Positions 9,629 through 58,559 of a stretch of DNA of 64,000 nucleotides are shown here, piece by piece. The stretch is taken from assembly GCA_044228285.1 (NCBI GenBank), contig JBGAVD010000002.1, positions 225,653-289,652 on the forward strand, read 5' to 3'. The stretch is from Chlorobiota bacterium (GTDB taxonomy: Bacteria; Bacteroidota; Ignavibacteria; Kapaibacteriales; NICIL-2). Below the pieces are notes generated by a model. It searched no databases. It had not been told where the DNA came from and saw only the letters and a list, made by a program, of their open reading frames with translations. The position numbers and the translations under genes were made by a program. How positions within the stretch are numbered: the stretch's first letter is position 1; each line of letters starts with the position of its first letter.

Positions 9629-10126
9629 TCTCGTTACAAGTAATCGTCAGAAGGGCCTGTGTCCTTTTGTGAATGGATCATCAAGAGGGCGCTTTGCTTG
9701 TTCTCTCTGTCGAGCCTGGTAGACTAGCCTGGATTCAGGCCTTTGCAATCGCGCTCATTTGTTAACAGCGATAAGTAGGTTCTCGCAACGTGTAGCGTTG
9801 CATGAGGATCGATAGTAGTCTTGAACCACAACCTGTGTGCTTTTCATGTGGCTTCGCCCTGCGGATGGAGAAGATTCGTACTGGAGTTGCTTGCCTGCTG
9901 CACTCACGGCATCCATTTAGAAGGTTGACATAGTAAGAATAAGCCAAGGTTTGTCTTAGAAGCCGAGGAATTTCTTGCTAATATTGTTATTGGGCAACAA
10001 GTGACTGACGAACATTATAGTGCCACACTCTCCGATTTCGCTGTAGAGCATCTTTAGATCGCCAGCGCTCTTTGCCCTCATGCGTGCTGCACGCACTTTT
10101 TTGTCACACTTGATCGCTGTCTTCAA

Positions 10127-12235: not shown

Positions 12236-12674
12236 TGTCGTTTGAGTTTTAGCTCTTGAGCGCCAATCTCGTAGAGAGTGTCGTAGAGTCTAAGTGCACA
12301 GATATCTTCGAAGCTTTAATCAGCTGCATAGCTGAGTATGTTAATTACCCTTGCTTACTGTTTCTTAGGCTGTTAGGTCTACAACACACAGACCTACGCT
12401 CGCGTCCCAGCTATGGAATTTGCTGACAGAATATCTGCATACCTTCTGTCTAGCGGAGAGATTATTGTTGTGTGCAGTCATGCATAACCTATACATAATT
12501 GCAAAAAGCATTAAGAAAAAACTACCGCTAACTCTTTTAGAGAGAAGAAGATAGCCTTGCTTTTCGGTCTTGCGCGGTTATATTTGCCCTACCACCTACC
12601 GCTCGTATCCTACACCACATCACATAGTTAGCTAAGCCGGTTTGTCATACAGGATCCCACTATTAGGAGAGTCT

Positions 12675-14657: not shown

Positions 14658-14947
14658 GAGTTCAGGTGTTACTCGATCAAACGTGTACTCTGCATCGAGG
14701 GTATCAGGCTTGAAAATGAGACTTCACACAGGGTAGTATCTGTTGACACCAAGTGGGGAGTGACTTGATTGGGTTATCGCTTATGTACGTCGCTCTGCTG
14801 AACAACGGGCGCTCTGTTCATGTGAGTGCTTCGATTGAGCACAGAGACTTCTCATCTTGCCTCCCTTTGCCATTCGCGCTGTTATCGTAAAAGTTGTAAG
14901 CGATTCGATTTTGCTTACCTATCATCTCAATCTTTAGAGGAATAGCT

Positions 14948-16120
14948 ATGCGAGCTTCTCTGCAAGAATGGAAGAAACGCAGCTTTGGAATTTGCATTCT
15001 GCTGGCTGTCACGTGTCTCATACAACCTTTACAATCACAAGTGAGCGTTCACCTCACTCAACCTCCTACCAATCAACTTCGCGTTGCTGATCTCTGGCGT
15101 TTGAGTGTGACGAATTCCAGCGCTTCAATAAAACGAGTGTATATGCAGGGTCTTGTACGCGAACGACAAAGTGGAGAAATTGTCCGCGCAACGACAAAGA
15201 GCTTTGTGTTGAAGCCAGGCGAGAGCAAGGTTTTTAACCCCTCAACTGTTCCCTCCAGCACCGTCCAATGGTCGAATGTTCGATACAAGAACATACTCAC
15301 AACGAGCGGTCAAGCACCATCAGGAAACTACACTATTTGTATCTCAGTGTTTGATGAGTCAACAGCTATCGAGCTAGGGAGCGACTGTATAGAACAGAGT
15401 GTTGAGATTGCATCGTCGATTGAGTTGAGCGCACCGGAAGATGAAGCTGTGCTCTCAGGTAGCACCGAGGTATTCAGTTGGCTACCTCCGAGTGTGAATC
15501 CTGGTCAACTGCGATACGTCCTTAGGATTTACGATTTGCGGAATCAGCAGTCCGCGAAGGAGTTCATTAGCTCAGGTTCTGCCGTCCTGACGAACCAAAA
15601 TGTGAATACCAATTCTTTCGTTCTTGGTATTGCATCACGTGGGCTTCGAGCTGGACGACGTTATGCCTGGCAAGTGGAAGCAAGGTCTGGTGATCTGCTC
15701 ATAGCGTCAAGTGAAGTTCGCTTTTTTAAAGTTGCAGCGGCTGAAAGGAAGATGATCAGTCGTCAAAAAGCCATTGATATCATCTTGAAGACGATTCTGG
15801 TTCCTCCAACATTGAATCATCGGGTAACGGTGTATCTCGGTATGGAAGTGAGTCCGATTGGTGCTGTCGTTCAACCATTCATGATCGACGATAAACGGCG
15901 GACCCTAACACAACCCACATGGTTCGCCTGGATTAACGATGATCCCACAGCGTACTTCGAGCATCCAACTCGCTTCGTCTACATCAATGCGTACACTGGT
16001 GAATTCGAGATACAAAACGAAGGATGGTGGCCCGTGGTGAATGGCGAGTCCTTGTGGATGCACAATGAAGAAAAATCAAATCCAAGCGTGCTCATCTATT
16101 CTGATGTTCACTTAAAGTAG
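14948..16120 (+). CDS. Hypothetical secreted protein
   Basis: Signal peptide (FGICILLAVTCLIQPLQSQ) and coding-like composition; no family recognised. Confidence 0.5.
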   Translation: MRASLQEWKKRSFGICILLAVTCLIQPLQSQVSVHLTQPPTNQLRVADLWRLSVTNSSASIKRVYMQGLVRERQSGEIVRATTKSFVLKPGESKVFNPSTVPSSTVQWSNVRYKNILTTSGQAPSGNYTICISVFDESTAIELGSDCIEQSVEIASSIELSAPEDEAVLSGSTEVFSWLPPSVNPGQLRYVLRIYDLRNQQSAKEFISSGSAVLTNQNVNTNSFVLGIASRGLRAGRRYAWQVEARSGDLLIASSEVRFFKVAAAERKMISRQKAIDIILKTILVPPTLNHRVTVYLGMEVSPIGAVVQPFMIDDKRRTLTQPTWFAWINDDPTAYFEHPTRFVYINAYTGEFEIQNEGWWPVVNGESLWMHNEEKSNPSVLIYSDVHLK

Positions 16121-16165
16121 CGTACTGTGTGACAACACTATTACCAACTCACTGGCCAGACGCAT

Positions 16166-18670: not shown

Positions 18671-18763
18671 GCTTTAGTACTACCAGTCAAGCTTGTGTAC
18701 TGCTTGCTCAACCTCATGCACTCAGATCTTGCGACTGAGGTGCTGTGTCTGCAATGAAAGACT

Positions 18764-19186
18764 CTACTTCGCTTGCTCAGGTGCCGTTGGTATGCGATAC
18801 TTCAAAAAGAGCAAGACTGTATTGAGATCCGCTGGAGAAATGGTACGAGAGACTTCGTGAATTTTTGGATCCTGCATGACGAAGGCTGCTTCGTATGAGT
18901 CCAGCTGCTTGGATGTAAAATTTGGAATGTTGTCTTGGCCTGCAGTAAAAATTCCATGGCAGCCAGAACACTTGTCTCTGAAGATCAACTTTCCAACTTC
19001 AAGTAAGCTGTCGACCTCTGCTTGCTCTTCTGGGGGTCGCCCAGTAGCTCGATCATACACTATGGTTGGGTTTAAGTACTCTGGCTTTTTGCTTGCGCAA
19101 CTTTCAAGTACCAGGAAAGCTAGAGGAAAAGCAAGAGATAAAACTATAGGTTTGAGCATGAGTGCGGATAATAGGCGAGTGGTCAT
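18764..19186 (-). CDS. Small c-type cytochrome (lipoprotein), mono-haem
   Basis: CSGCH haem-binding motif; lipoprotein-type signal (VLESC); the ATG at 19186 lies 1 nt downstream of the stop of the upstream peroxidase gene, suggesting translational coupling. Confidence 0.65.
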   Translation of the reverse strand: MTTRLLSALMLKPIVLSLAFPLAFLVLESCASKKPEYLNPTIVYDRATGRPPEEQAEVDSLLEVGKLIFRDKCSGCHGIFTAGQDNIPNFTSKQLDSYEAAFVMQDPKIHEVSRTISPADLNTVLLFLKYRIPTAPEQAK

Positions 19187-19187
19187 C

Positions 19188-21122
19188 TTAGTAATCTCCT
19201 CCAACTTTTCTGAACAACAACTGTGGAATGCTGGATGCCGGAAGTCGAGCTGGAGCTGGTTCGATGTTGAGTTCTTCATTGAGACTTGATATGAACTGAA
19301 GTAGATCTCGAATCTCGGAATCTTTCAATTTCAAGGAATCTGCTGACAGCGTTTGATTTTCTACGTGGAGCTTCCTTCCTTGACCACCGCCGGCGTTGTA
19401 AAAACTCATCACTTGATCGAGTGTCCAGAAGACTCCATTGTGCATGTACGGCTTGGTGCGATCGGCATTGCGAATGGTGCCGGTGCGAAACGCATTCTTC
19501 ATTTCATACGCTGGATGCACAAGATAGCGTCCGCTGTCAGCACTTAGCCGAACAAAGTTTGTGTCGGCTGGCACACCAATAACCTCAAACTCTGAACCAA
19601 CGAATGGCGGTTTCACGCCGTTGAATTGTGGTACAAAGTGACAAGTACCGCATTGCGCCTTCGACATAAACAGATTGAATCCCGTGATCGCACGCGGTGA
19701 AAGTGTACCTTGATTATTCATGGCGTGATCAAAGGGCGCTTGAGCATAGCTGAAGTCTGAGTAGTACAGTGTGATCGCCGAGATGATATGATCAAGACTT
19801 ATGCGAGTGTTGTAGGGTGTGTATGTCACGAAACGTTGAAGCGCATTCTTGTATTCATCAACGCTCAGCACTTTTTCGAGGATCTGCTTTTCTGTGCTCG
19901 ACAACTCTTCTTTAGACTTGAGCACTGCTTTGGCTTGGTCGGACAAGGAAAGGTGTTTGCCGTCAAGCATAAGAAGGTGATTGTGCATCACGTTCAGCAG
20001 CGATGGCGAGTTCCTGCTCAAATTGTGGATGCGATCAAAGGCGATGGCACTTGCTCTTGTCGTGTCAGTGAAAAAGCTAGTTGGATTGTGGCACGAGGCG
20101 CAGCTGCGCTGATTGTTTCCCGAGAGAATGGGATCGTAAAACAAGAGTCTGCCGATACTTTTGATCTGCGCTATGACCTTTTCGTCTTCAACTCCTGCAA
20201 ATACCCCTGACGCGTGCTGAGCTCTGTACAAACGCTTGTCGAAAATACTCGTGCTTGCAGAATTCAGGCTATAGTCATTCACATTCCTGCTCGAGAGATC
20301 ATAGTTCTCAATGGCCTCGTGGTTTAGCGCATACAGCGGATTAACAAAGTCACGAATGAAATGGAAGTGATCAAAGGAGTCTCGATCATGGTCGCGCTTT
20401 GATACGTACCGTACTGTACTCTCAAACTTTTCCTTATAACTTCTCGAAAGAGGGTAGTCAGTGAAGGTTGCGTTGTAGGCAGCATAGAGCTCAAGCATTG
20501 AGCTCAGCATGGTGTCGAGTTCGATGATGACGCGCCCAGCATCCGGACACTCAAAACCTGTGGTGTAGATGGCTGCGAGATTGAGAAGAAAAAGTCGATT
20601 TGCATAAAAGAAGTGTTTGTGCGACGATACTTCACGCGTAATGCTGTCGGCTAGATATGTTCCACTCGCCTGATAGGCAGCTCGCACCAGCGCTCGCACC
20701 GAGTCTCTCTGAACTGACTCTTCATCAAGATACATTTCTGCAAGACTAAGTCCTGCACCTTCGCGCTTATAGGGCTTCTCAAACTTCTCAAACACCTCCG
20801 TCTCCCATTCAACTGGTAGAGGCGCATTGACTTTTTTGTATGCAAGAGGATCTAGGTAACGAAGCCAGATGTCGACCCGCTTCATTGCCAAGCGAGCATG
20901 GTGAATGTCTTGCTTGAGCTCTTCCTTTCCTTTTTCAGTGCTACAATCAGCTACCTCAATTCGTGCTAACAGTGTTTGCTGGTCTTGTCTAAACTGTTGA
21001 ATGCGAGTTCGATACAGTGTTCGATACGGAGAATTCTCTGTTGCTTGTTTGTTTGTCGTGATGCAACTCGTAAAGCAGGTGCTGAGAATGATCACTATGA
21101 TACATGAAGTTGTGCTGTGCAT
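19188..21122 (-). CDS. Di-haem cytochrome c peroxidase (CCP/MauG family) with a ~300-aa N-terminal extension
   Basis: Two CxxCH motifs (CASCHNP, CGTCHFVPQFNG) and the conserved YMHNGVFWTLDQV distal-ligand region typical of bacterial CCPs. The likely start is the ATG at 21122 with signal peptide (MHSTTSCIIVIILSTCFTSC); the ORF tool extends to 21341. Confidence 0.8.
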   Translation of the reverse strand: MHSTTSCIIVIILSTCFTSCITTNKQATENSPYRTLYRTRIQQFRQDQQTLLARIEVADCSTEKGKEELKQDIHHARLAMKRVDIWLRYLDPLAYKKVNAPLPVEWETEVFEKFEKPYKREGAGLSLAEMYLDEESVQRDSVRALVRAAYQASGTYLADSITREVSSHKHFFYANRLFLLNLAAIYTTGFECPDAGRVIIELDTMLSSMLELYAAYNATFTDYPLSRSYKEKFESTVRYVSKRDHDRDSFDHFHFIRDFVNPLYALNHEAIENYDLSSRNVNDYSLNSASTSIFDKRLYRAQHASGVFAGVEDEKVIAQIKSIGRLLFYDPILSGNNQRSCASCHNPTSFFTDTTRASAIAFDRIHNLSRNSPSLLNVMHNHLLMLDGKHLSLSDQAKAVLKSKEELSSTEKQILEKVLSVDEYKNALQRFVTYTPYNTRISLDHIISAITLYYSDFSYAQAPFDHAMNNQGTLSPRAITGFNLFMSKAQCGTCHFVPQFNGVKPPFVGSEFEVIGVPADTNFVRLSADSGRYLVHPAYEMKNAFRTGTIRNADRTKPYMHNGVFWTLDQVMSFYNAGGGQGRKLHVENQTLSADSLKLKDSEIRDLLQFISSLNEELNIEPAPARLPASSIPQLLFRKVGGDY

Positions 21123-41223: not shown

Positions 41224-41748
41224 TAGATTACTGTTTGTTTTAAGGCGGTATCGTAAGGGAGGCTCTGAGGGAATGCTTCACTTTTCAAGTGTACACTCGC
41301 CAGCTTTTCAGTGACCATGTTTGATGGTGTATACAGGGATCCGATCCAGAATCCTTTACACGCGCCCGACACAGACAAGGGGAGTTCTGAAGATTGATAT
41401 TCTGCCCGCAGTTGTTGCGGTCATAGAAATATGCGTCCAGGAACTGAAGCTGCCAACGATTAGCACCCAAATAGCCAACGACTACTTTAAAGAGATTTGT
41501 AAGTTAGCGGAGAGTAGTGAACCCGTCCCGTATACTCGACATTGCAGTAAGGAGCGCATTCATGACGCTAAATCGAAAGATGAGTTCATTGGCACACATT
41601 CTGCGCGCCCAACCTTCGTGACCCTGTCGGTGGAAAAGTGAGTACGTCGGGAAGTCTTGATGGAGCTTGCGGGGCACGAGGATGTAAGATCATTGATGGA
41701 ATAAGCGCCTATTGACGAACAGGTCGCGACTAGGGACATGACGAACGC

Positions 41749-42609
41749 GTGGAGCTAGGAGTAGTTTGTACAACTGGAGTAAGATCTGTGACCTGTGTGG
41801 TTGGTCCACACGTATTGGAACCTTCAATTGAAACGATTTCAGACGACATGAGGCAATCAGGTCGATACATAGTAAGAATGGCCTGGGCGCTTATCCCTGA
41901 GTATTACCGAGAACAGTCGCAGCGAATTGCGCCAACACCCTTTTATCGCAGACTTTTTAACATATTGAGCGGACAGAAGAGGCCTGCTTCCAATGCTTTT
42001 CAACTGTGGCACGGTCAACTTCGAGAAACGCTTCATTTCATGGAGCCAGAAAACTACCGAGGCATAGGGCGCGGCTACTTGCGCTCGGGTATTAGCTATG
42101 GTGTTGACGAAGAGGTGTCGAGAATAGAGGCTTTTTACGGAATTGATTTCTCCCCTAAAGATAATCTTCGAGCTCGTGAGTATATGGCTAAACTTGAGGA
42201 GAGGTATCAGTACGACACACAAGTTATTGTTCCGTGCCAGTATAGCGCGGCGGAATTGCTAAAGGCCTATGACCTGCTCGATAGTAAACATGAGTATGAG
42301 ATTATTGAGGTGACAGAAGGCAAAAAAGTATCTGACATTTCAACCCTTGGTTTTGATGTTGGAAGCTTGTCATACGGATACTCTGTAATTGCCGACGCTG
42401 CAATCATGCCGAACTCGTACCCTCCGGTGATTGACGCCATGGCGGATATTGTGGAGCAATTGAAGAAACTCAACCAGCATTGCTTGTTTTCCAAATATCA
42501 AGATGCCAGTGATTACTTAGCTTTGTACAACAGAAAGGTATTGGGGGCTAAAGGAGAATACTGTGTTGTACAAGTGCGGCTATTAATGCCTGAATCCTTG
42601 CAAAACTGA
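41749..42609 (+). CDS. Hypothetical protein (unknown family), first gene of the defence island
   Basis: 286-aa ORF with coding-like composition and no recognisable motifs; the start is uncertain (alternative Met at MRQSGRY / MAWALIPEYY). Confidence 0.45.
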   Translation: MELGVVCTTGVRSVTCVVGPHVLEPSIETISDDMRQSGRYIVRMAWALIPEYYREQSQRIAPTPFYRRLFNILSGQKRPASNAFQLWHGQLRETLHFMEPENYRGIGRGYLRSGISYGVDEEVSRIEAFYGIDFSPKDNLRAREYMAKLEERYQYDTQVIVPCQYSAAELLKAYDLLDSKHEYEIIEVTEGKKVSDISTLGFDVGSLSYGYSVIADAAIMPNSYPPVIDAMADIVEQLKKLNQHCLFSKYQDASDYLALYNRKVLGAKGEYCVVQVRLLMPESLQN

Positions 42610-42935
42610 ACAATAAGGAAAGCACGAAAGTAGCATGCGGTACAAAAGTGAAAGTGTATTTTGTGCTATCCGACACTGGAAACACTGTGCTTAGCTACGC
42701 GCACGTGTTCATCGCTAATATGCGAAATCGTTTTGAAAACTAATTCTAATGTCTGGCGAAATCGCGTCGACTGGTTCAGCGCGGCCAAGAATAATGAGTT
42801 GTCTTTCCGAAAGTCAATACAGCAATTTAGTGAGGCGCGTGGCAGTCAGTATCACAGTCGTTTCAACTCTTTGGACGCACAGTTGCACCCGGAAAGAGAT
42901 GTAGAATTCAGATAATATAATATGAGTGATATAGA

Positions 42936-45557
42936 ATGACTAAAATAGAGACGACATTTGTACCAATAGTCCTGCAACTTGATCGGGCTTATAACTCTAT
43001 TGATGATTCGGATATAGCTGGATTTTATGACTTGTTGCACCTAGGAGAAATGATTTCTAAAATCATTACATTATCTCTAGTTGCCGCCATTAAGAGCGAT
43101 TCTTTGCGCACACGATACAGTTTGCACTACGAATTAGTCCGGGCAGACAGTATTGGAGTATGGGCCGATGTACTCAGTAGAACCCTTGTCGGCCCTGCTC
43201 AGCAGCTACTTGATCGTCAATATCGAGATAACGAACTTAAAGAATTAACAATAAAAGTAAGTAGTGGGTGGCAATACGAAGCGCTTCAAAACTTAAACAC
43301 AGCATTAAATATATTTAGACGTGCAGGAAGCCTCCCAAGTAAAGTCCAGTTTCGCAACTGGTTTGCTATGTTTGTCCAGTTGCGCAATGCTACCCGCGGA
43401 CATGGTGCTCCATCAGGTGAGCAGTGCGCGGCGGCAATTGTACCACTACATGAGTCGCTGAAATATATCATCGAGAATTATTGTCTCTTTGGAAGAGAGT
43501 GGGCTTATTTACATGAAAGCTATTCAAAGAAATACAGAGTAACGGCTCTAAACGGTTCATCTATTTACTTTGACCACCTAAGAAAGAGTAAGGAGTACAG
43601 CACACGATACAAAGATGGTTTGTACGTTTACTACTCAGATATTACGACAGTTGACTTGATCTACTCTTCGGTGGATGCTATAGACTTTCACTTCGCCAAT
43701 GGTTCATTTGGTAGTAAGTATTTTGAAGCAATATCGTATTCATCGAATAGTACGATTGAGTGTGAAAGCGAGAATTATAAAATTCCTGTAATGGAATTGC
43801 AACAAAGTACAACTGATGGCTCTCAAACATTAAGCATCGAAGGCAACGTATTTACAAACAAGCCTGTTACTCCACCAGATTTGATCGACAGGACGGATCT
43901 TGAAGCTAGACTTAATTATGTATTGAGCGAAGTAAATCGTTACCCAATTGTTACCCTGCACGGTCGCGGTGGAATTGGAAAGACTTCACTCGCGCTGAAA
44001 GCACTTGCCGAAATAGTTACAACATCTCGCTATGATATAGTTTTGTGGTTTAGTAGTCGCGATATTGACCTTTTGCCTGAAGGCATTAGGCATGTACAAC
44101 CTGCTATTCTTAATGTGGAAGACATTGCGACATCGTTTATCAAAATGACTGGATCTATCGGCTTAGTAAATGAAACTCCAGTCGAATTGTTGGCTCGTCA
44201 TATGAAATCAAGTGAACTAGGGAGAATACTGTTTGTGTTCGACAATTTCGAAACCGTTGACAACCCCGCTGAGTTGTTCGCATGGATCAATAGTCACATT
44301 GAGAATCCAAACAAAGCGCTGATAACATCTCGAATAAGCAGTACATTTGTTGCGGATATTCCGATTGAGGTTGCTGGAATGTCAGAGGAGGAATGTCGTA
44401 ACTTGATAGAAGCATCTACAAAAACTCTGAGCATTCCACTAGAAGAAGATGTAATTAGAAATATATTGGATCAGTCAGATGGTCACCCGTACATTGTGAA
44501 AATACTCTTGGGATATTTTGCACTTAATCCAGAGCGCAGAAATGTTGAACAGGTGCTCGCATCTAAAGATGAACTATTGAACGCCCTCTTCAGTCGAACT
44601 TATAATTCATTGACAGTTGCGGCAAGAAGAGTGTTCCTGACCCTTTGTAGCTGGCGGATGATCATTCCACAATTAGCATTGGAGGCGGTTCTCTTGCGAC
44701 CCGAAAACGAGTACATGGATGTTGAGGAGGCTATAGAAGAGCTTCGTAAATCATCTCTCATTGAAATAGTGTACAGTGATGATAGGTATCCATACATTTC
44801 TGTTCCTCTCTCAGCGTTTATCTTTGGAAAGAGGGAATTGCAAGTATCGTATATGCAGACTTCAGTCTTAGCAGACAGGGCGTTGTTGCAGGAATTTGGT
44901 ACTAACAGTGCAGGTGCGCAATATTATGACATTGAACAGCGCGTTCTACAAAAAATAAAGATGGTTGCACGTCACGCTTCTGGAGATGTACATGAACTTA
45001 ATAAACGGTTGCCAACTTTAGAATATATTGCGCGCAGATATAATAAAGCGTGGAAGTATTTAGCAGATATGATGTACGATGTGGGGGAAAACGTCCGTGC
45101 ACATCAATATATAACAGAGTATCTGAAGACACCGATTGATCCTGATGAATCATATATAGTATGGAACAAGGTTGCAAAATGGAGTGCGGAGTCCCATGAC
45201 GTATTAAATGAAGTAAACGCCATGAATCATATTTGCAAGTCGATAAGGGCATCATCTAAGGAAATATTCAATATTGCTAGGAAAATCGACCTGTATATTA
45301 GAGAAAAGAAAATGTCTATGGGCGATTCTTCGTATGAAATTCATATGGAGACAATCGTGCGTGATATAATTACAGTATGTGACAAGCACATATATCGCAC
45401 TGGTACTGCAGATGACTATCTTGTGCTAGGAGAGCTCTCTCTTGTTCTAGGCGATCATTCAAGGGCAAAAAATTACATAGAGAAGGGACTCGAAAGATTT
45501 CCAACTTCAGGTAGATTGAAGAAGGCATTATATGCGACTGGAGCCTACTCTGCATAG
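42936..45557 (+). CDS. STAND-class P-loop NTPase (NB-ARC/AP-ATPase-like; Avs-like architecture): ~330-aa uncharacterised N-terminal domain, NTPase core, C-terminal helical/TPR-like repeats
   Basis: Walker A VTLHGRGGIGKTSLAL (aa ~343-351), Walker B ILFVFDNFE and an hhhTSR sensor-like ALITSRI. The C-terminal ~450 aa are helical repeats. The N-terminal region contains LRNATRGHG (R150-x5-H156), which matches the HEPN R-x4-6-H motif. The gene is AT-rich relative to its neighbours. Confidence 0.7.
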   Translation: MTKIETTFVPIVLQLDRAYNSIDDSDIAGFYDLLHLGEMISKIITLSLVAAIKSDSLRTRYSLHYELVRADSIGVWADVLSRTLVGPAQQLLDRQYRDNELKELTIKVSSGWQYEALQNLNTALNIFRRAGSLPSKVQFRNWFAMFVQLRNATRGHGAPSGEQCAAAIVPLHESLKYIIENYCLFGREWAYLHESYSKKYRVTALNGSSIYFDHLRKSKEYSTRYKDGLYVYYSDITTVDLIYSSVDAIDFHFANGSFGSKYFEAISYSSNSTIECESENYKIPVMELQQSTTDGSQTLSIEGNVFTNKPVTPPDLIDRTDLEARLNYVLSEVNRYPIVTLHGRGGIGKTSLALKALAEIVTTSRYDIVLWFSSRDIDLLPEGIRHVQPAILNVEDIATSFIKMTGSIGLVNETPVELLARHMKSSELGRILFVFDNFETVDNPAELFAWINSHIENPNKALITSRISSTFVADIPIEVAGMSEEECRNLIEASTKTLSIPLEEDVIRNILDQSDGHPYIVKILLGYFALNPERRNVEQVLASKDELLNALFSRTYNSLTVAARRVFLTLCSWRMIIPQLALEAVLLRPENEYMDVEEAIEELRKSSLIEIVYSDDRYPYISVPLSAFIFGKRELQVSYMQTSVLADRALLQEFGTNSAGAQYYDIEQRVLQKIKMVARHASGDVHELNKRLPTLEYIARRYNKAWKYLADMMYDVGENVRAHQYITEYLKTPIDPDESYIVWNKVAKWSAESHDVLNEVNAMNHICKSIRASSKEIFNIARKIDLYIREKKMSMGDSSYEIHMETIVRDIITVCDKHIYRTGTADDYLVLGELSLVLGDHSRAKNYIEKGLERFPTSGRLKKALYATGAYSA

Positions 45558-45826
45558 CTTGAGGTGGGCGAGAAGGGAACACTTTGGTAGGAAGTGTATG
45601 AGCGAAATCTGTAATAAGATTATAGGTTCATATCTTTGACACCGACGTGACAGAAGACCTTAAAAAAATGCACTGTTGTCGATGAAGGCGGGCGACTAGT
45701 TACTTGCCTTATACATCAAGCTACGGGTGTAATCTAGAGATAATGTCCTCGCTGAATCTAAGAAACCTCCAAATATTATCAAGAATCGTACAATACTTTG
45801 TAATCATAGCGTAGAAGTTTATAAAA

Positions 45827-48800
45827 ATGCCTCATACCAAAAGCGTCTACGAATCGTCTTCTGACTCTAGGACTAAGCATGTCCGCGAAGAGCACATCGA
45901 ATACGGGTTCATCGATAGACTCCAAGAGCTCAAGTACGAGTATCGCAAGGACATCCGTGACCGCGCCGCCCTCGAACACAACTTCCGCGAAAAGTTCGAA
46001 TCCCTAAATCAAGTCAAGTTGTCGGATGCGGAGTTCGCGCGCCTGCTTGACGAAATCGTCAGCAACGACGTCTTCACCGCCTCCAAGACCCTACGAGAGC
46101 GCAACACCTTCATGCGTGAAGATGGCACGCCTCTGAATTTCACACTTGTCAACATCAAAGACTGGTGCAAAAACACCTTCGAAGTGGTTAATCAGTTGCG
46201 CATGAACACCGCTAACAGCCACCACCGCTATGATGTCATGCTGCTTATTAATGGTGTGCCAGTAGTTCAGATTGAGTTGAAGACTTTGAGCATCAGTCCA
46301 CGCCGTGCCATGGAGCAAATTGTGGACTACAAGAATGATCCGGGCAATGGCTATTCGAAGACTCTGCTGTGTTTCTTGCAGCTTTTCATAGTAAGCAATC
46401 GCTCGGAAACGTGGTACTTCGCCAACAACAACGCCCGACACTTCAGTTTCAATGCGGAAGAGCATTTCTTGCCTATCTATCAGTTTGCCACGGAAGACAA
46501 CAAGAAGGTTACTCACCTCGACATCTACGCCGAGATCTTCCTTGCGAAGTGTTCACTAGCGCAGACCATTAGCCGTTATATGGTACTGGTTGCTTCCGAA
46601 CAGAAGCTGCTCATGATGCGACCCTACCAGGTCTATGCCGTGAAGCATATTGTGGAATGCATTCATACCAACTCCGGTAATGGCTTTGTGTGGCATACCA
46701 CGGGGAGCGGTAAGACCCTGACATCATTCAAAGCTTCAACCCTGCTGAAAGACAATCCGGATATCGAGAAGTGTCTGTTTGTAGTAGACCGCAAAGACCT
46801 CGACCGACAAACCCGCGAAGAATTCAATCGTTTTCAGGAAAACTGCGTCGAGGAGAACACCCATACGAGCACGCTGGTGTCGCGGCTGCTTTCTGACGAC
46901 TACGCCGACAAGGTGATCGTCACCACCATTCAAAAGCTAGGTCTGGCTTTGGATGAAAACTCCAAACGCACTGCTTCTCGTGGTGAACGTGGCGCTAAAA
47001 CCTACAAGGAGCTGCTCGAGCCTCTGCGCAACAAGCGCATTGCCTTCATTTTTGATGAGTGTCACCGCTCACAGTTTGGCGATAACCATCAGGCAATACG
47101 TGATTTCTTTCCCAAAGCGCAGCTTTTTGGTTTTACAGGGACGCCGATTTTTGAAGAAAATGCGAGCGCGCAGAAAATTGAGGGACAACAAGCGTCAATG
47201 CGCACGACGCTGGACCTCTTTGAAAAGCAGCTTCATGCTTATACCATTACCCATGCCATTGAGGACGGAAACGTCCTGCGCTTTCACATCGACTACTTTA
47301 AGCCTGAAGGGCTTAACGATAAACCAAAACCGGGTGAAGCATATGCCAAGAAGGCGGTCATTGAAGCCATTCTGAGCAAGCATGATGCGGCAACGGGTGG
47401 ACGTCGCTTCAACGCTGTTCTTGCCACCTCCTCAATCAACGATGCCATTGAATATCACGCATTGTTTAAATCCATCCAGGCGGAGAAGCTGGCAGCGGAT
47501 CCGGAATTCAAAGCCCTGAACATTGCCTGTGTGTTCTCACCTCCGGCAGATGGTGATGCGGATGTGCGTCAAATCCAAGAAGACTTACCTCAAGAGCAAG
47601 CCGACAATCGCGAGAATCCTGAGGGCAAGAAGGCTGCGCTCATGAGCATATTGGCTGACTACAATGCTCAATATGGCACGAACCACCGCATCTCGGAGTT
47701 CGACCTATACTATCAAGACGTGCAATCTCGTATCAAGGCTCAGCAGTGGCCGAACAATGATTATCCGGCAACACAGAAGATTGATGTCACCATCGTGGTG
47801 GATATGCTACTCACGGGTTTTGATTCCAAGTACCTGAACACGCTCTATGTAGATAAGAATCTCAAGCATCATGGACTTATCCAGGCATTCTCGCGCACGA
47901 ACCGTGTATTGAATGGCACGAAGCCTTACGGGAACATTCTTGATTTTCGTCAGCAACAAGATGCCGTCGATGCAGCCATAGCCTTGTTCTCAGGCGAGAA
48001 GTCGGCCGAGCAGGCGCGCGAGATCTGGTTGGTAGATGAAGCCAGCGTAGTGATTCGCAAGCTGGATACGGCGGTGCAGAAGTTGGATGAGTTTATGAAG
48101 TCGCAGGGACTCGACTGTGCGCCGCACGAAGTCTCGAACCTCAAGGGTGACGAAGCCCGCGCGGCATTCATTACGCATTACAAAGAAGTGCAACGTCTGC
48201 AAACGCAGTTGGATCAGTACACGGATTTGACGACGGAGAACCGCGAGGAGATGGAGAGCATCATTGCGCACGACGACATGCGTGCTTTCAAGGCGCAATA
48301 CCTCGAAACAGCGAAGAAACTTAAAGCCTTGCAGGGCAACGGAGATAGCGATGGCTCTGCGACAAACGTTGCCGAACAGCTCGATTTCGAATTTGTGCTC
48401 TTTGCTTCGGCGGTTGTAGATTACGACTACATCATGAGTCTCATTGCGAAGTTCTCCGCCAAGGAACCGGGTAAGTCCAAGATGAGTCGCGAAGCACTCA
48501 TTGGCCTGATCAGTTCCGACGCGAAGTTCATGAACGAGCGCGACGACATAGCCGAGTACATCAACACGCTCAAAGCCGGTGAAGGTCTGAGCGAAACAGA
48601 GATCCGCGAAGGCTATGTGCGTTTCAAGGCTGAGAAGGAAGCCAAAGAGCTGGCAAGTATTGCAGCCCGACACAAGCTCGCAGCGAAAGCCTTGAAGGAC
48701 TTTGTTGATGGCATTCTGAACCGCATGATATTCGATGGAGACCAACTGAGCGACCTCATGCAACCACAAGACCTCAGTTGGAAAGAACGCACACAAGCAG

Positions 48801-48886
48801 AACTAGCCCTTATGAACGACCTCATTCCACTTCTTCTTAAGCGCGCCCAAGGGCGTGAGATATCGGGGTTGAGTGCGTATGAGTAA
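45827..48886 (+). CDS. hsdR: Type I restriction enzyme R subunit (HsdR)
   Basis: HsdR N-terminal nuclease region; helicase motif I WHTTGSGKTLTSF; motif II FDECHRSQFG (DECH); SF2 helicase C-terminal motifs; 1019 aa. Confidence 0.95.
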   Translation: MPHTKSVYESSSDSRTKHVREEHIEYGFIDRLQELKYEYRKDIRDRAALEHNFREKFESLNQVKLSDAEFARLLDEIVSNDVFTASKTLRERNTFMREDGTPLNFTLVNIKDWCKNTFEVVNQLRMNTANSHHRYDVMLLINGVPVVQIELKTLSISPRRAMEQIVDYKNDPGNGYSKTLLCFLQLFIVSNRSETWYFANNNARHFSFNAEEHFLPIYQFATEDNKKVTHLDIYAEIFLAKCSLAQTISRYMVLVASEQKLLMMRPYQVYAVKHIVECIHTNSGNGFVWHTTGSGKTLTSFKASTLLKDNPDIEKCLFVVDRKDLDRQTREEFNRFQENCVEENTHTSTLVSRLLSDDYADKVIVTTIQKLGLALDENSKRTASRGERGAKTYKELLEPLRNKRIAFIFDECHRSQFGDNHQAIRDFFPKAQLFGFTGTPIFEENASAQKIEGQQASMRTTLDLFEKQLHAYTITHAIEDGNVLRFHIDYFKPEGLNDKPKPGEAYAKKAVIEAILSKHDAATGGRRFNAVLATSSINDAIEYHALFKSIQAEKLAADPEFKALNIACVFSPPADGDADVRQIQEDLPQEQADNRENPEGKKAALMSILADYNAQYGTNHRISEFDLYYQDVQSRIKAQQWPNNDYPATQKIDVTIVVDMLLTGFDSKYLNTLYVDKNLKHHGLIQAFSRTNRVLNGTKPYGNILDFRQQQDAVDAAIALFSGEKSAEQAREIWLVDEASVVIRKLDTAVQKLDEFMKSQGLDCAPHEVSNLKGDEARAAFITHYKEVQRLQTQLDQYTDLTTENREEMESIIAHDDMRAFKAQYLETAKKLKALQGNGDSDGSATNVAEQLDFEFVLFASAVVDYDYIMSLIAKFSAKEPGKSKMSREALIGLISSDAKFMNERDDIAEYINTLKAGEGLSETEIREGYVRFKAEKEAKELASIAARHKLAAKALKDFVDGILNRMIFDGDQLSDLMQPQDLSWKERTQAELALMNDLIPLLLKRAQGREISGLSAYE

Positions 48887-50156
48887 GGGTCTAGATTCTT
48901 CCAAAAATCGATCATCGACATTGCCGGTTCCAAAACTTCGATTTCCTCAGTTTAAAGCAATGCCCGGTTGGATTGACGTACCATTGATCGGCATCACAAA
49001 CAGAGAAGTAAAGTGGAGTTTTACAGGTGGTCCGTTCGGGTCTAATTTAAAGGCCTCCGACTACACCGATTCAGGTATACGTATAATCCAGTTGCAAAAT
49101 ATCGGAGATGGTATATTTCACGATGAATACCACGTCTATACATCGGTAGATAAAGCGGACGAGTTGCGAAGTTCTAATATCTATCCCGGCGAGATAATCA
49201 TGTCCAAAATGGGTGATCCAGTAGGACGCGCATGCTTTGTTCCTGTGGAAAGGGCAAGATATTTGATGTGCTCAGATGGTATTCGTGTGGTAGTTAACGA
49301 GTCTGAACACGATAAGTACTTCATTTACTCGCAAATCAACTCTCAGTCGTTTAGGAAAATCGTAGAAAGCAACGCCACAGGTTCAACTCGAAAACGCATC
49401 GGACTCGAGGAACTAAAAAAACTGTCTCTTGCGATACCTACTAAGGAGGAACAACAAAAAATCGCCCACTGCCTAAGTTCTCTGGACGAGCTGATAGCCG
49501 CCCAAGCCCGCAAAGTGGAGGCGCTCAAGAAACACAAAAAAGGTCTGATGCAACAGCTTTTCCCACGCGAAGGGGAGACAGTGCCGAGGTTGAGGTTTGA
49601 GGAGTTTAGGGGGAGTGGGGAGTGGGAGGTAAAATACTTGTTCAATGTATGTGATATGGGTGCCGGAAAGTTCGTTGCAGCTGCGGAGATATTCGAAATT
49701 TACGGTGCAGGTTGTTATCCGTGCTACGGCGGTAACGGTTTACGCGGGTATACTCAAACTTTCACCCACAGTGGTACATTCCCAATAGTTGGGCGTCAAG
49801 GAGCACTTTGTGGCAACGTTAAACTGGTTCAGGGCCATTTCCATGCTACAGAACATGCAGTAGTCGCAACTCCGAACTCAAATGTGGACGTCTATTGGTT
49901 GTATCACCAACTTGACAAAATGAACCTAAACAGGTATGCAACCGGGCAGGCGCAACCGGGCTTGTCAGTCGACACTATTGGAAAATTGCAGATCCGTGTA
50001 CCATATGCAATTGCGGAGCAGAGAAAAGTTGGCGAAACTCTTAATGCCATTGACGTTGCAATTTTCGAGTGCTCTCAAAAGATAGAATTATTTCATCGCT
50101 TTAAGAGCGGCTTGATGCAAGTCTTGTTCCCAAGTGCACCGATGGCAAAGGAGTAA
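48879..50156 (+). CDS. hsdS: Type I restriction-modification specificity subunit (HsdS), two target-recognition domains
   Basis: Two variable target-recognition domains separated by, and followed by, conserved coiled-coil repeats (LDELIAAQARKVEALKKHKKGLMQQLFP / IELFHRFKSGLMQVLFP). The ATG at 48879 overlaps the hsdR stop (ATGAGTAA). Confidence 0.9.
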   Translation: MSKGLDSSKNRSSTLPVPKLRFPQFKAMPGWIDVPLIGITNREVKWSFTGGPFGSNLKASDYTDSGIRIIQLQNIGDGIFHDEYHVYTSVDKADELRSSNIYPGEIIMSKMGDPVGRACFVPVERARYLMCSDGIRVVVNESEHDKYFIYSQINSQSFRKIVESNATGSTRKRIGLEELKKLSLAIPTKEEQQKIAHCLSSLDELIAAQARKVEALKKHKKGLMQQLFPREGETVPRLRFEEFRGSGEWEVKYLFNVCDMGAGKFVAAAEIFEIYGAGCYPCYGGNGLRGYTQTFTHSGTFPIVGRQGALCGNVKLVQGHFHATEHAVVATPNSNVDVYWLYHQLDKMNLNRYATGQAQPGLSVDTIGKLQIRVPYAIAEQRKVGETLNAIDVAIFECSQKIELFHRFKSGLMQVLFPSAPMAKE

Positions 50157-50195
50157 CTTACTTCCCAGTTGAACACGCCTCCACACAACAGCTTT

Positions 50196-51809
50196 ATGAC
50201 AGACACTAACCAAAAACAACTAGGCACAACTCTCTGGAAGATAGCCGATCAACTCCGCGGCGCCATGAACGCGGACGACTTCCGCGATTACATGCTGTCC
50301 TTCCTCTTCCTTCGCTACCTCTCCGACAACTACGAGACGGCGGCAAAGAAGGAACTGGGCAAGGACTACCCCTTGGTCGATGCAGATGAGCGCCGTGTGC
50401 CCCTAGCAAAGTGGTACGACGAAAATGCGAAGGACGTCGTCGAGTTCGAAAAACAGATGCGTCGCAAGGTGCATTATGTTATACAGCCGCTACACTTGTG
50501 GAACAGTATATCCAATCTGGCGCGTACGCAGGATGGTGAGCTGCTTCACACGCTCCAAGACGGCTTCAAGTACATTGAGACAGAGTCATTCGAGAGCACT
50601 TTCCAGGGGCTGTTCTCTGAGATCGACCTCAACTCTGCCAAGCTAGGGAAGAACTACACTGAACGCAACACCAAGCTTTGCGCCATCATCTCGGAAATTG
50701 CCAAAGGTCTGGCGGAATTCTCGACGGACATCGATGCGCTGGGCGATGCCTATGAGTACCTCATCGGACAATTCGCTGCCGGTTCCGGCAAGAAAGCGGG
50801 GGAATTCTATACGCCGCAGCAGATATCGGATATTTTGTCGGCCATTGTCACCCTCGATAGCCAAGAACCCAAAACCGGCACCAAGCAACGTCTGGAAAAC
50901 GTCCTCGACTTCGCCTGTGGCTCCGGCTCCTTGCTGCTCAACGTGCGCAAGCGCATGAAGAAGTCGGGCGGTACCATTGGCAAAATCTACGGTCAGGAAA
51001 AGAACATCACTACCTACAACCTCGCTCGCATGAACATGCTGCTGCATGGCGTGAAGGACAGCGAGTTTGAGATCTACCACGGCGATACTCTGCTCAATGA
51101 TTGGGACATGATGCGAGAGCTCAATCCTGCCAAAAAGCCTTCGTTCGACGCAATAGTGGCAAATCCACCCTTCAGTTACCGTTGGGATCCCAGCGAAAGC
51201 ATGGCAGATGATGTGCGTTTTAAGAGTCACGGAGTGGCCCCCAAATCCGCCGCTGACTTCGCCTTTTTGCTCCACGGTTTCCATTTCCTGAAGGATGAAG
51301 GCGTCATGGCCATCATTCTCCCGCACGGCGTCCTTTTCCGCGGCGGAGCCGAGGAACGCATCCGCACCAAGCTGCTCAAGGATGGTCATATTGATACCGT
51401 TATTGGTCTGCCTGCAAATCTATTCTACTCAACGGGGATTCCGGTTTGCATCCTTGTTCTCAAGAAGTGCAAGAAGTCTGACGACGTGTTGTTCATCAAT
51501 GCCGCCGAGCACTTCGAGAAAGGCAAACGTCAAAACCAGCTGAAGCCAGAACATATTGCCAAAATCGTAGACACCTATCAAAACCGCAGCGAAGAAGAAC
51601 GCTATGCTAAGCGCATATCCATGCAGCGTATTGAGGAAGAGGGGTACAACCTCAACATCTCACGCTATATCAGCACCGCCGTTGCCGAAGACGAGATCGA
51701 CTTAGCGGCTACGCATGTAGAGTTGGTGAAGATTGAGGCGGTGATTCAGGCGGCGAAGGGGAAGCACAATGCGTTTATGAGTGAGTTGGGGTTGGAGGAG
51801 TTGCCGTAG
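50196..51809 (+). CDS. hsdM: Type I restriction-modification N6-adenine DNA methyltransferase subunit (HsdM)
   Basis: HsdM N-terminal domain (LWKIADQLRG); SAM-binding motif I (LDFACGSGSLL); catalytic NPPF (IVANPPFSYRW). Start chosen at ATG 50196 by alignment to HsdM N-termini (the ORF tool used TTG 50169). Confidence 0.95.
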   Translation: MTDTNQKQLGTTLWKIADQLRGAMNADDFRDYMLSFLFLRYLSDNYETAAKKELGKDYPLVDADERRVPLAKWYDENAKDVVEFEKQMRRKVHYVIQPLHLWNSISNLARTQDGELLHTLQDGFKYIETESFESTFQGLFSEIDLNSAKLGKNYTERNTKLCAIISEIAKGLAEFSTDIDALGDAYEYLIGQFAAGSGKKAGEFYTPQQISDILSAIVTLDSQEPKTGTKQRLENVLDFACGSGSLLLNVRKRMKKSGGTIGKIYGQEKNITTYNLARMNMLLHGVKDSEFEIYHGDTLLNDWDMMRELNPAKKPSFDAIVANPPFSYRWDPSESMADDVRFKSHGVAPKSAADFAFLLHGFHFLKDEGVMAIILPHGVLFRGGAEERIRTKLLKDGHIDTVIGLPANLFYSTGIPVCILVLKKCKKSDDVLFINAAEHFEKGKRQNQLKPEHIAKIVDTYQNRSEEERYAKRISMQRIEEEGYNLNISRYISTAVAEDEIDLAATHVELVKIEAVIQAAKGKHNAFMSELGLEELP

Positions 51810-52242
51810 CCAATATGAGGCGTTAAGTGTTTTCGCAAATGATTAACTTGCTAATCGATCAACTATACAAAGATCATACTCTCAATAATGAAGCTTTGAC
51901 TGTTTAAGGAGTTATATATCGCTTCGCAACTGTTGTCATTGTATCCGATTGTTGCTCTGACTTAATTCGTGTCATTCGGTAGTATAGCATTTATAAAATG
52001 ACAACCGCTATGAGATAAAAGTCAGGGAGAATTCGTAGGACAGACACTGATGCCACAGTATGCCTAATGATTGGCAATCTAAGTATTAAATCGTGCATTT
52101 ATGTGACACATGAGTTGGTGATAGTATTAGTAGCTAGATTAGTTAAGTGCGGGAAATTATAGGGACTCAGCGCATGTACAATTTCATTAAGCCAAGTCGT
52201 AGTAATTTGCTTGCAGCAAATGGAGGTGTCGATAGCATAATA

Positions 52243-52419
52243 TATCACTAGTGTCCCGTTGTTTTAATACCACTGCGCCTGAAACTGTTGCCAGATCTTG
52301 CTTGCAGAGCTTTTTGGAAGCGCCACGATTTGAAATCTACGGTCTGACAAATGTGCCTCATTTGGCTTAGAATCGACGTTTTTTTATTCGTGTTTTAAAA
52401 CTGCGGGACACTAGTGATA
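52243..52419. repeat. 16-bp perfect inverted repeat pair (extends to ~24 bp with 2 mismatches) flanking ~145 bp; MITE-like element or long hairpin
   Basis: tatcactagtgtcccg at 52243-52258 and cgggacactagtgata at 52404-52419 are exact reverse complements. The adjoining ttgtttta / taaaactg extend the match. Confidence 0.6.
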
Positions 52420-52643
52420 ATGTATTGTAAATGACAATAAATGTTGGTCACCGGGTGTGTTACGGTCTAGAAACGTCGTATCGGGATTGTTAGATAGGCT
52501 AACACTTGAGAATGCCTTTACCCATGGCTTGTTGCTTTCATCACTTTTAATGAATCTAAATTACAATCCATTTAATTCATTTTTAATTGAAAATAGATCG
52601 TTTTTGTCTAAAAGAAGAGTATGTCAATCTATATAAAAATACG

Positions 52644-53867
52644 ATGAGTTGCATAATAATTTTAGGCGCTGGTGCGTCGATTCCTTTTTACAGTCCGAAG
52701 CTTACGACTGATTATTTGACTAAGGTCGTGTTAGATACGACCAAGTGGAATGATATTGTCATTAGATATAACAATTCAATCCCGGCACATGCTACCGGCG
52801 TCGACGTTTCTGTTGTGCAGCAGGTATTCCATAATGTTTCCACTGCACATCGTGACTATAACTTTGAACAGATATTAGAAATTGTCGATAAAATTAGTTC
52901 GTTTAGTATTGATCCGTACTCAGATTCGAAAGTACTACATGGGATTTTGCAATATTATAAAGCTCAGGTGTCTGTAAGCTCAGAACACGCATGGGATTGC
53001 GTTCCATTTCTCGCACGACAGATAATAGCAGAAGAGGTGTCTTCTTTGCATATGACGTGTAAGTCTTATGACTATACACGATTGACTCAATTGCAGGAGC
53101 AATTTTTAGCTTCTATTTGTGATGAAGGAGCGGTGAACATATTTACGCTTAATTACGACGAAATAATATTTGACGCCGTCGCTAAATTGGGATTCCAGTT
53201 GGGTTTTGACAGCAATGATCGCTTTGATATCCGTTCATTTATTGCCGCTGATAGAAGTATTTCATTTCCGCACGGTCATTCAAGGTTCAGTTATGATGAC
53301 TACGGTATGTTATATCATCATGGCAGCGAGGATGCAAATAAGTATAGATTAAGTCATATTGGATTAAGTAATATGTCGGAAACCAAGTACTTAACCGACA
53401 GTGCATACTCATATTCGTTCAACACTTTTATTTCAACAGGGCAACAGAAAGAGCCTACATTTGATGTTAATCCATTTGCTGCATATTATCAAAAATTTGC
53501 AAGTGATTGTTTAAAATCGAATAAAATAATTGTCGTCGGATATTCTTTTTCGGATTCGCATTTCAACAGGATGTTGTTGAACTATTTGAGCATTTCGTCT
53601 TCAAACAAAGTAATAATAATAGATTATATTCCTCAAGCTATCGACATACAAGCGGAGTTTGTAACATCAGGCAGTTTTATTAATAGAATGTTCAATCAGT
53701 TGGGAGTGAATTCGATTCCAATGGATGGACTAACGCATAAATATAAATATTATCAGGCTGAGCATGAGTTAAATATGGATGGATATGCAGAGATTTTGCC
53801 GCAAATAGTATTATACAAGAAGGGATACGATGCATATTTGAACGAGTTTAACTCAATTAAGGTGTGA
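52644..53867 (+). CDS. Stand-alone SIR2_2-family (ThsA/DSR-type SIR2-like) protein, putative NAD+-depleting defence effector
   Basis: Begins IIILGAGAS (Rossmann GAGxS). The family motifs TLNYD, HHGS and VVGYSFSDSHF are present in the expected order. Very AT-rich gene preceded by a 780-bp AT-rich spacer. Confidence 0.65.
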   Translation: MSCIIILGAGASIPFYSPKLTTDYLTKVVLDTTKWNDIVIRYNNSIPAHATGVDVSVVQQVFHNVSTAHRDYNFEQILEIVDKISSFSIDPYSDSKVLHGILQYYKAQVSVSSEHAWDCVPFLARQIIAEEVSSLHMTCKSYDYTRLTQLQEQFLASICDEGAVNIFTLNYDEIIFDAVAKLGFQLGFDSNDRFDIRSFIAADRSISFPHGHSRFSYDDYGMLYHHGSEDANKYRLSHIGLSNMSETKYLTDSAYSYSFNTFISTGQQKEPTFDVNPFAAYYQKFASDCLKSNKIIVVGYSFSDSHFNRMLLNYLSISSSNKVIIIDYIPQAIDIQAEFVTSGSFINRMFNQLGVNSIPMDGLTHKYKYYQAEHELNMDGYAEILPQIVLYKKGYDAYLNEFNSIKV

Positions 53868-58471: not shown

Positions 58472-58487
58472 TTTTGGAAACTGGTTG

Positions 58488-58559
58488 TGATCTCGGGGGG
58501 ACTTGAACCCACGACCCTCTGATTAAAAGTCAGATGCTCTACCACTGAGCTACGAGATC
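58488..58559 (-). tRNA. tRNA-Lys (anticodon UUU)
   Basis: Manual fold of the minus strand: acceptor GATCTCG/CGAGATC (7 bp); U8-A9; D-arm GCTC-AGTGGTAGA-GAGC; anticodon arm TCTGA-CTTTTAA-TCAGA (anticodon TTT); variable loop 5 nt; T-arm GTGGG-TTCAAGT-CCCCC; discriminator A; CCA not encoded. Confidence 0.9.

Follow-up and report, generated by a model that had tools for sequence, protein, structure and literature searches.

A composite defence island in a Chlorobiota genome: a STAND NTPase, a type I restriction-modification operon and a solo SIR2-family protein as probably independent modules

A stretch of 64,000 nucleotides from a Chlorobiota bacterium (assembly GCA_044228285.1, contig JBGAVD010000002.1, positions 225,653 to 289,652 of the forward strand), referred to here as the window, contains a run of six open reading frames (ORFs) that lie on one strand within about 12 kb (Table 1). 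These encode a protein of 286 amino acids (aa), an 873-aa STAND NTPase, the HsdR, HsdS and HsdM subunits of a type I restriction-modification (R-M) system, and a protein of the SIR2 family. An initial annotation had described the run as a composite defence island built up piecemeal. Its gene coordinates and plus-strand orientation were all confirmed, and its assignments of the STAND protein, the type I R-M set and the SIR2_2 domain were upheld by Pfam, PADLOC and NCBIfam. An island of this sort is ordinary as such, R-M systems flanked by other defence genes being common; here it probably represents three mechanistically independent modules that were inserted separately beside a now-decayed integrase.

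Composition and independence of the island genes

The relationship between the island genes can be judged from the surroundings of their relatives in other genomes. Two sets of loci were examined, each with 10 kb to either side: 80 STAND loci from species-representative genomes and 25 SIR2 loci that are mostly metagenomic. When all island proteins were used as tblastn queries, a homologue of the SIR2-family or the 286-aa protein was encountered in 0 of the 80 STAND loci, and a STAND-family homologue in 0 of the 25 SIR2 loci. All-against-all clustering of 5,827 ORFs revealed no conserved neighbour of either gene, the apparent neighbour clusters being composed of antisense ORFs inside the STAND gene and of ubiquitous short-chain dehydrogenases at variable positions. 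Because there is neither co-occurrence nor a conserved neighbour, the STAND, SIR2 and 286-aa genes are considered independent of each other, and the initial suggestion that they might be split parts of one undescribed system did not hold. The accompanying remark that the STAND and SIR2 genes fit no named system was borne out: the STAND protein has no PADLOC match, and the SIR2 protein has only partial matches to SIR2 models.

The island is also heterogeneous in composition. Relative to 25 background genes (GC content 0.475 ± 0.018; GC content at third codon positions, GC3, 0.488 ± 0.034), the STAND gene (GC 0.407, z -3.8; GC3 0.370) and the SIR2 gene (GC 0.368, z -6.1; GC3 0.363) are AT-rich, and the gene-less spacer that precedes the SIR2 gene has the same composition as that gene. 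All three lie far beyond the scatter of the background genes, in agreement with the AT-rich mosaic first described. The R-M operon looks foreign too, as hsdR (GC 0.506, GC3 0.609, GC3 z +3.6) and hsdM (GC 0.526, GC3 0.676, GC3 z +5.6) deviate in the opposite direction and are GC3-richer than the flanks. The earlier description of the R-M genes as chromosome-like in composition was not supported. The 286-aa gene is background-like; so is hsdS, which leaves an operon in which two genes have GC3 far above that of host genes and the third is host-like. From the STAND gene to hsdR, GC3 steps from 0.37 to 0.61 across a gap of 270 bp. Three compositional classes therefore point to at least three separate acquisitions, and, along with an integrase remnant at the left edge, they support the piecemeal assembly of a composite defence island.

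This remnant, the decayed C-terminus of a tyrosine integrase, marks the left edge of the island and probably an old insertion event. The frame of an ORF at 41321-41641 runs on as GTHSARPTFVTLSVEK, a stop, VRREVLMELAGHEDVRSLME, a further stop and AP, which represents the catalytic C-terminus of a tyrosine integrase broken by two in-frame stops. Once the stops were patched, the sequence matched Pfam Phage_integrase at positions 117-169 of 172 (E 3.8e-5), its 24 bits just missing the cut-off of 27.1. The 286-aa ORF starts immediately downstream. Its first ~89 residues are not covered by its sole homologue, and translation probably begins at 41848 or 41878, giving a predicted protein of about 240-250 aa. 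No match to this protein was found in Pfam, PADLOC, NCBIfam or PHROG, nor in phages, and only one homologue (P0175, at 10001-10678 of locus L001; 42% identity over residues 90-277) was recovered from 5.8 billion clusters, where it is surrounded by unrelated genes. Homologues were also absent near the STAND and SIR2 homologues of the 80 and 25 loci searched by tblastn. A defence role for this near-orphan, as entertained initially, is therefore unsupported, and the gene appears to be an unrelated passenger to which no family match assigns a function. P0175 itself shows a weak match to the SocA/Panacea antitoxin domain (E 0.011, below threshold), and the window protein shows no such match.

The type I R-M operon, annotated from the outset as complete, has all its subunits adjacent and their motifs present; it looks intact, and nothing points to decay. 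HsdR contains the Pfam domains HSDR_N, SWI2_SNF2/ResIII, T1R_D3 and EcoR124_C, matches PADLOC REase_I (1102 bits) and TIGR00348, and retains the motifs D136...E150-x-K152, GSGKT293 and DECH410. Methylase_S is found in two stretches of HsdS (PADLOC Specificity_I, 2.5e-120), and HsdM is recognized by N6_Mtase (2.4e-105), HsdM_N, TIGR00497 (3.3e-120) and PADLOC MTase_I (2.3e-158) and carries the motifs DFACGSG247 and NPPF332. The genes are arranged in the order R-S-M, with hsdS overlapping the hsdR stop by 14 bp and a gap of 12 bp between hsdS and hsdM. In systems of this type self DNA is methylated by HsdM2S, and DNA that lacks the modification is translocated and cleaved by HsdR.

Table 1. Features of the defence island and its left edge (window coordinates)
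Feature	Coordinates	Strand	Remarks
Integrase remnant (decayed C-terminus)	41384..41750	+	patched Phage_integrase match
286-aa ORF	41749..42609	+	first of the six-ORF set; coordinates confirmed
STAND NTPase, 873 aa	42936..45557	+	NB-ARC + TPR
hsdR	45827..48886	+	type I restriction subunit, EcoR124-type C-terminus
hsdS	48873..50156	+	specificity subunit, two target-recognition domains
hsdM	50169..51809	+	N6-adenine methyltransferase subunit
Gene-less AT-rich spacer	51810..52643	.	GC 0.369; holds 28-nt inverted repeat
SIR2-family protein, 407 aa	52644..53867 (ORF from 52587)	+	start corrected to M20

The remainder of the window encodes secreted proteins, proteins sorted by the type IX secretion system (T9SS) and proteins with housekeeping roles, among them dxs, a TonB-dependent receptor and a zinc peptidase; this gene content assigns the window to Bacteroidota. 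No HerA, Piwi or TIR domain was seen among the larger ORFs of the 64 kb. Around the island, direct repeats or att sites were limited to short repeats at chance level. A tRNA-Lys(TTT) gene is located at 58487-58559 on the minus strand, ~4.6 kb downstream of the island, and is probably not the integration site because no repeat joins it to the island edges. An Rfam scan of the region for RNA genes returned a single chance match, to Xist, within the SIR2 gene; terminator-like sites occur at chance frequency, and the sigma-70 promoter model is a poor fit to Bacteroidota. Searches of GenBank phages gave no match for the STAND, SIR2 or 286-aa protein. Another assembly from this organism (Logan SRR28480390, L108) is identical over the ~13.2 kb shared, barring 68 extra bases at its positions 7930-7997, which correspond to window position ~40934 and may reflect a genuine deletion or a difference between the assemblies. 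A BNR/T9SS-sorted protein encoded by a single 773-aa gene in that assembly is split into 658-aa and 91-aa ORFs in the window.

The STAND NTPase and its family

The STAND protein has a three-part architecture. The central ATPase is a Pfam NB-ARC domain (residues 326-545, E 1.9e-10) with intact Walker A (GRGGIGKT, 343-350) and Walker B (LFVFD436) motifs, and it is followed by a winged-helix region and a short TPR tail that extends to residue 873 (TPR_14, 5.4e-6 at 828-865). In the AlphaFold2 model (predicted local distance difference test score, pLDDT, 88.5) the N-terminal domain occupies residues 1 to ~280 and comprises two lobes, one helical (9-186) and one of beta structure (189-277). For this N-domain of ~280 residues, no match was obtained in Pfam (E <= 10), NCBIfam, PADLOC or a PDB profile search. 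A Foldseek comparison against the PDB also returned nothing (best E 0.21). Within the family, mean pairwise identity is highest in the region that follows NB-ARC (0.60), and lower in NB-ARC itself (0.55), the N-domain (0.45) and the TPR tail (0.37).

One motif of the N-domain, [LIF]-R-N-x-T-[RK]-G-H-G-A, is nearly invariant among 217 full-length members of the family, in which R150 and N151 are conserved in 100% and H156 in 99%. The segment R150-N151-x-T-[RK]-G-H156 corresponds to the pattern Rx4-6H with a polar residue following the arginine, which is said, in work of Anantharaman and colleagues from 2013, to be a signature of HEPN RNases. Since the STAND gene has no fixed partner, its effector would have to be supplied in cis, and the N-domain would be the sole candidate. 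Whether the N-domain is a divergent HEPN-type RNase, as its motif suggests, is roughly an even call.

Members of the family are widespread yet patchy in distribution. More than 1216 full-length homologues were found at ~40% identity, and 300 species matches at ~35-45% identity are scattered over at least 15 phyla, among them Bacteroidota, Acidobacteriota, Chloroflexota, Actinomycetota, Pseudomonadota, Planctomycetota, Verrucomicrobiota, Bacillota and Patescibacteria. An exhaustive search with a hidden Markov model (HMM) of the N-domain through 1.84 billion representatives recovered 734 clusters at 50% identity. In the best 150 hits the domain has an N-terminal or nearly N-terminal position in proteins that measure ~850-890 aa when full length; within this sample the N-domain is confined to the STAND family and does not act as an adaptor that a separate effector gene would share. 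Members of the family include WP_160127835.1, WP_293954254.1 and WP_274435599.1, and no paper citing homologue accessions was found in the library searched. Among plasmids, near-full-length homologues were found only on Ralstonia megaplasmids: in five R. solanacearum megaplasmid records the match has 34% identity at 96% coverage (for example Po82, L107 128289-130826), and in two further records the matches cover 71% of the query. The megaplasmid records lack annotation, the PLSDB tables listing no gene under the match.

Several STAND loci are associated with defence genes or mobile elements. In 6 of the 80 loci (L030, L050, L076, L083, L104 and L106) the STAND gene is co-directional with a type I R-M gene set that it adjoins or lies within. 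The closest arrangements are those of L083, where the order is hsdM-hsdS-STAND-hsdR and the STAND gene ends 5 bp before hsdR, and of L106, where it overlaps hsdS by 4 bp; the hsdM-hsdS-X-hsdR placement is shared by L076. These R-M-linked loci are distributed over several separate clades of the family tree, and in all six, as in the window, the STAND gene is AT-richer than hsdM and hsdR. Genes that sit beside or inside R-M sets and are AT-richer than them conform to the pattern that Payne et al. 2024 describe for "embedded cargo", in which many unrelated systems are carried in slots of type I R-M, BREX and DISARM operons (10.1101/2024.01.29.577857). In another locus (L115, 3642-12943) the STAND gene (GC 0.33, compared with 0.52 for gpA) is inserted between the gpA replication gene and the portal/terminase genes of a P2-like prophage, a site known as a defence hotspot (Rousset et al. 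2022, PMC9122126). Nine IMG/VR contigs carry the family as well, and among 118 immediate neighbours the most recurrent are R-M methylases, helicases, specificity subunits, GmrSD and integrases.

The SIR2-family gene and its upstream spacer

The Pfam SIR2_2 match of the last gene of the island is marginal (24.8 bits against a cut-off of 24.5), yet its fold is clearly that of SIR2. The start was moved to M20, the Met from which homologues of 395-447 aa align, some of them with short N-terminal extensions. The family is small, with 53 matches and ~50 close members (E <= 1e-60), and it is characterized by the invariant residues GAGxS (8-12), N170-Y-D172, H210-G211 and G299-x-S301...D304; Y300, F302 and H306 are nearly invariant, so that GYSFxDxH spans 299-306. 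The predicted model (pLDDT 92.4) is most similar in Foldseek, over its full length, to the SIR2 subunits of the E. coli and Paenibacillus SIR2-HerA systems (E 1.6e-10 to 1e-7, template modelling (TM) scores 0.5-0.57), whereas sirtuins, DSR2 and ThsA reach TM scores of only ~0.3. A profile match to 8w9l (1.8e-8) includes the motifs TNYD, HG and GYSFxDxHIN, which are common to both proteins. The best PADLOC matches are to Aga_SIR2, associated with prokaryotic Argonaute (pAgo), at 1e-17 and over the SIR2 core only.

Neither HerA nor pAgo was found beside the SIR2 gene in the 25 homologous loci or in the island. The neighbours vary and include Gabija on a conjugative transposon (L002), ThsA (L005), a PDC-S49 KAP NTPase (L007), a RiboL-PSP HEPN protein (L010), AbiH (L011), a type III methylase (L019), a TPR-CHAT protein (L021, L022 and L026) and an Eco57I-type methylase with a helicase (L118). 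Such varied defence neighbours indicate that the family is defence-associated and partner-free. With the R-M gene sets and the prophage hotspot of the STAND family and the Gabija, ThsA and AbiH contexts of the SIR2 family, the defence association first proposed for both proteins was substantiated. Small ORFs next to the SIR2 gene were considered as possible partners, and three clusters (c32, c81 and c38) recur in 2-3 loci each; none has a match beside the SIR2 gene of the window.

One further locus, L008, contains a type I R-M operon that encloses a SIR2 homologue (40% identity) and an unrelated NACHT-type STAND protein. The order at 7157-19899 is hsdR, SIR2, a 1198-aa NACHT STAND, a 206-aa ORF, hsdM, a 383-aa ORF and hsdS; the NACHT protein has an HSDR_N_2 nuclease-like N-terminus, and the two cargo genes have a far higher AT content. 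All three kinds of component known from the window recur in L008, nested there within the R-M operon.

The spacer upstream of the SIR2 gene holds an inverted repeat (52243-52270 and 52392-52419) of 28 nucleotides with 89% complementarity, its arms 121 nucleotides apart and its fold z at -6.1. Further copies of the repeat are absent from the window and it matches no Rfam family, and the spacer showed no similarity to other loci and, by tblastx against the fetched loci, no coding remnant. The repeat could be a relic similar to a miniature inverted-repeat transposable element (MITE) or a regulatory structure.

Interpretation and comparison with known systems

Under the three-module reading each component would act by itself. 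The winged-helix/TPR part of the STAND protein may bind a phage-derived ligand, upon which ATP-dependent oligomerization would bring the N-terminal domains together. The invariant R-N-x-T-[RK]-G-H motifs would then form a composite, HEPN-like RNase site, and the resulting RNA cleavage would halt the infected cell. The type I R-M system would provide DNA restriction as a second, independent layer, and the solo SIR2 protein may act as an NADase, depleting NAD+ when the cell is infected, in which the sensing function would reside in the protein or its oligomer. Several observations weigh against this scheme. With ~330 aa after the ATPase, the TPR tail falls short of the Avs sensors of at least 400 aa analysed by Lee et al. 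2026 (PMC13581612), and the STAND family shows even conservation and no hypervariable sensor. Most of the immediate neighbours of STAND homologues are unremarkable genes, and the claim about N-domain architecture is based on the best 150 of 734 clusters. The SIR2 of SIR2-HerA is described as one half of a two-gene system, and a relative that lacks HerA may thus depend on an unseen partner encoded elsewhere.

Alternative arrangements can be weighed against the same data. The STAND and SIR2 proteins, with or without the 286-aa protein, might constitute one split system similar to the fused SIR2-STAND proteins that exist as Avs5 (PMC12931631), operating in trans across the R-M operon. Both genes are AT-rich and lie within 12 kb on one strand, and in L008 the SIR2 homologue is located directly upstream of a STAND gene inside a type I R-M operon. 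That STAND protein, however, was not detected as a relative of the window family, the fold of the SIR2 protein is nearest to SIR2-HerA rather than to DSR2 or ThsA, and a 6-kb operon of different composition separates the two genes; with no co-occurrence within 10 kb to either side in either set of loci and no shared conserved neighbours, a split system can hardly be credited. It is also very unlikely that the SIR2 gene is inactive and was left stranded when a two-gene system, SIR2-HerA or SIR2-pAgo, lost its partner gene. The nearest structures and best PADLOC models, together with the 834-bp gene-less AT-rich spacer upstream, are compatible with such an origin, but the ~50 close members are mostly 395-447 aa in length and keep GAGxS, NYD and H-G invariant, HerA or pAgo adjoins the gene in 0 of 25 loci, no HerA, Piwi or TIR is encoded by the larger ORFs of the window, and tblastx against the fetched loci detected no coding remnant in the spacer.

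Two other explanations concern the STAND protein. The hsdM-hsdS-X-hsdR placement observed in two of the R-M-linked loci is that of prrC, and PrrC, like the STAND protein, combines an NTPase with a (putative) HEPN nuclease. The STAND protein could therefore be a back-up coupled to type I R-M in the manner of PrrC, kept latent or informed by the Hsd complex, triggered when phage anti-restriction proteins disable that complex, and then cleaving RNA through its HEPN-like domain. When the window is included, 7 of 81 loci from several clades have the gene co-directional with, and beside or inside, a type I R-M set, in places with tiny gaps. PrrC itself is described as almost exclusively embedded in type I R-M (10.1101/2024.01.29.577857). 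On the other side, 74 of the 80 STAND homologues have no R-M neighbour, which argues against a PrrC-like guard as the general rule, and one stands alone in the P2-like prophage hotspot. The composition of embedded STAND genes always differs from that of hsdM and hsdR, as fits cargo in a permissive slot, and in the window the two are set apart by the intergenic gap and the step in GC3; coupling of this kind is considered unlikely. A regulatory or housekeeping role, with no immune function and an N-domain that is not an effector, would account for the lack of a known effector domain, the short TPR tail, the even conservation along the length and the ordinary genes that flank most homologues. Such a role appears improbable for a family that is patchily spread over many phyla, with identities of ~35-45%, whose genes are richer in AT than their hosts, recur inside R-M operons and occur in a prophage hotspot and on nine viral contigs, and whose proteins have no DNA-binding output domain and an invariant polar R/N/H motif. 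A more far-reaching version, in which the STAND family is an undescribed, widespread antiviral lineage with a new divergent HEPN-type effector, in part serving as a PrrC-like guard of R-M, and the SIR2 protein is a self-sufficient, HerA-independent NADase, is rather doubtful.

With three independent modules as the preferred reading, the island yields two compact single-gene defence candidates that PADLOC v2 models leave unclassified, both short enough for direct cloning. Its R-M component resembles the EcoR124 type, which likewise has an HsdR with EcoR124_C, a two-TRD (target-recognition domain) HsdS and an HsdM; the gene order here is R-S-M, and nothing else about it is unusual. The SIR2 protein differs from that of Thoeris, having no STALD or TIR match and a TM score of 0.33 to EcThsA. 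It differs equally from DSR1/DSR2, in which SIR2 is joined to a large C-terminal sensor (~1000 aa), since it has 407 aa and a TM score of ~0.3 to DSR2. It also differs from SPARSA (a short pAgo with SIR2-APAZ), as no pAgo is present in the window or near its homologues. With SIR2-HerA (Nezha / GAO_19) it is alike over the full length in fold and size (~400 aa), but identity is ~15%, no HerA is adjacent, and NCBIfam SIR2_antiphage scores 22 bits against a 500-bit cut-off. The model and the intact NAD-site motifs suggest a solo enzyme of the SIR2-HerA structural type which, if truly solo, would be an NADase of this type able to work without HerA.

The ATPase of PrrC is of the ABC type, whereas that of the STAND protein is of the NB-ARC class. 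PrrC/RloC and the STAND protein both place an NTPase and a (putative) HEPN nuclease in one polypeptide, yet most STAND members lie apart from R-M genes, and sequence similarity between the two was not found. The nesting of STAND genes in type I R-M operons nonetheless offers a testable link between restriction and an abortive back-up. Homologues of both STAND and SIR2 are nested as AT-richer cargo in type I R-M operons, like the cargo described by Payne et al. 2024; the window genes differ in flanking the operon, and neither matches a PADLOC v2 PDC or HEC model. The STAND protein also bears a likeness to Avs/AVAST (Avs1-5, and Avs7-21 of Lee et al. 2026, PMC13581612, who list 198 defence-associated STAND clades). 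The single-gene tripartite layout is common to both, with a non-NTPase domain at the N-terminus, a central STAND ATPase and TPR-like repeats at the C-terminus, as are the patchy horizontal spread and the defence-hotspot contexts. The STAND protein differs in having no PADLOC v2 match (E <= 0.01), AVAST models included, in a TPR tail that is conserved rather than long and variable, and in an N-domain that does not appear to be among the recognized effectors and has no Pfam or PDB relative. If this N-domain is the effector, it would represent a new output module for bacterial immunity of the NLR (nucleotide-binding, leucine-rich repeat) kind.

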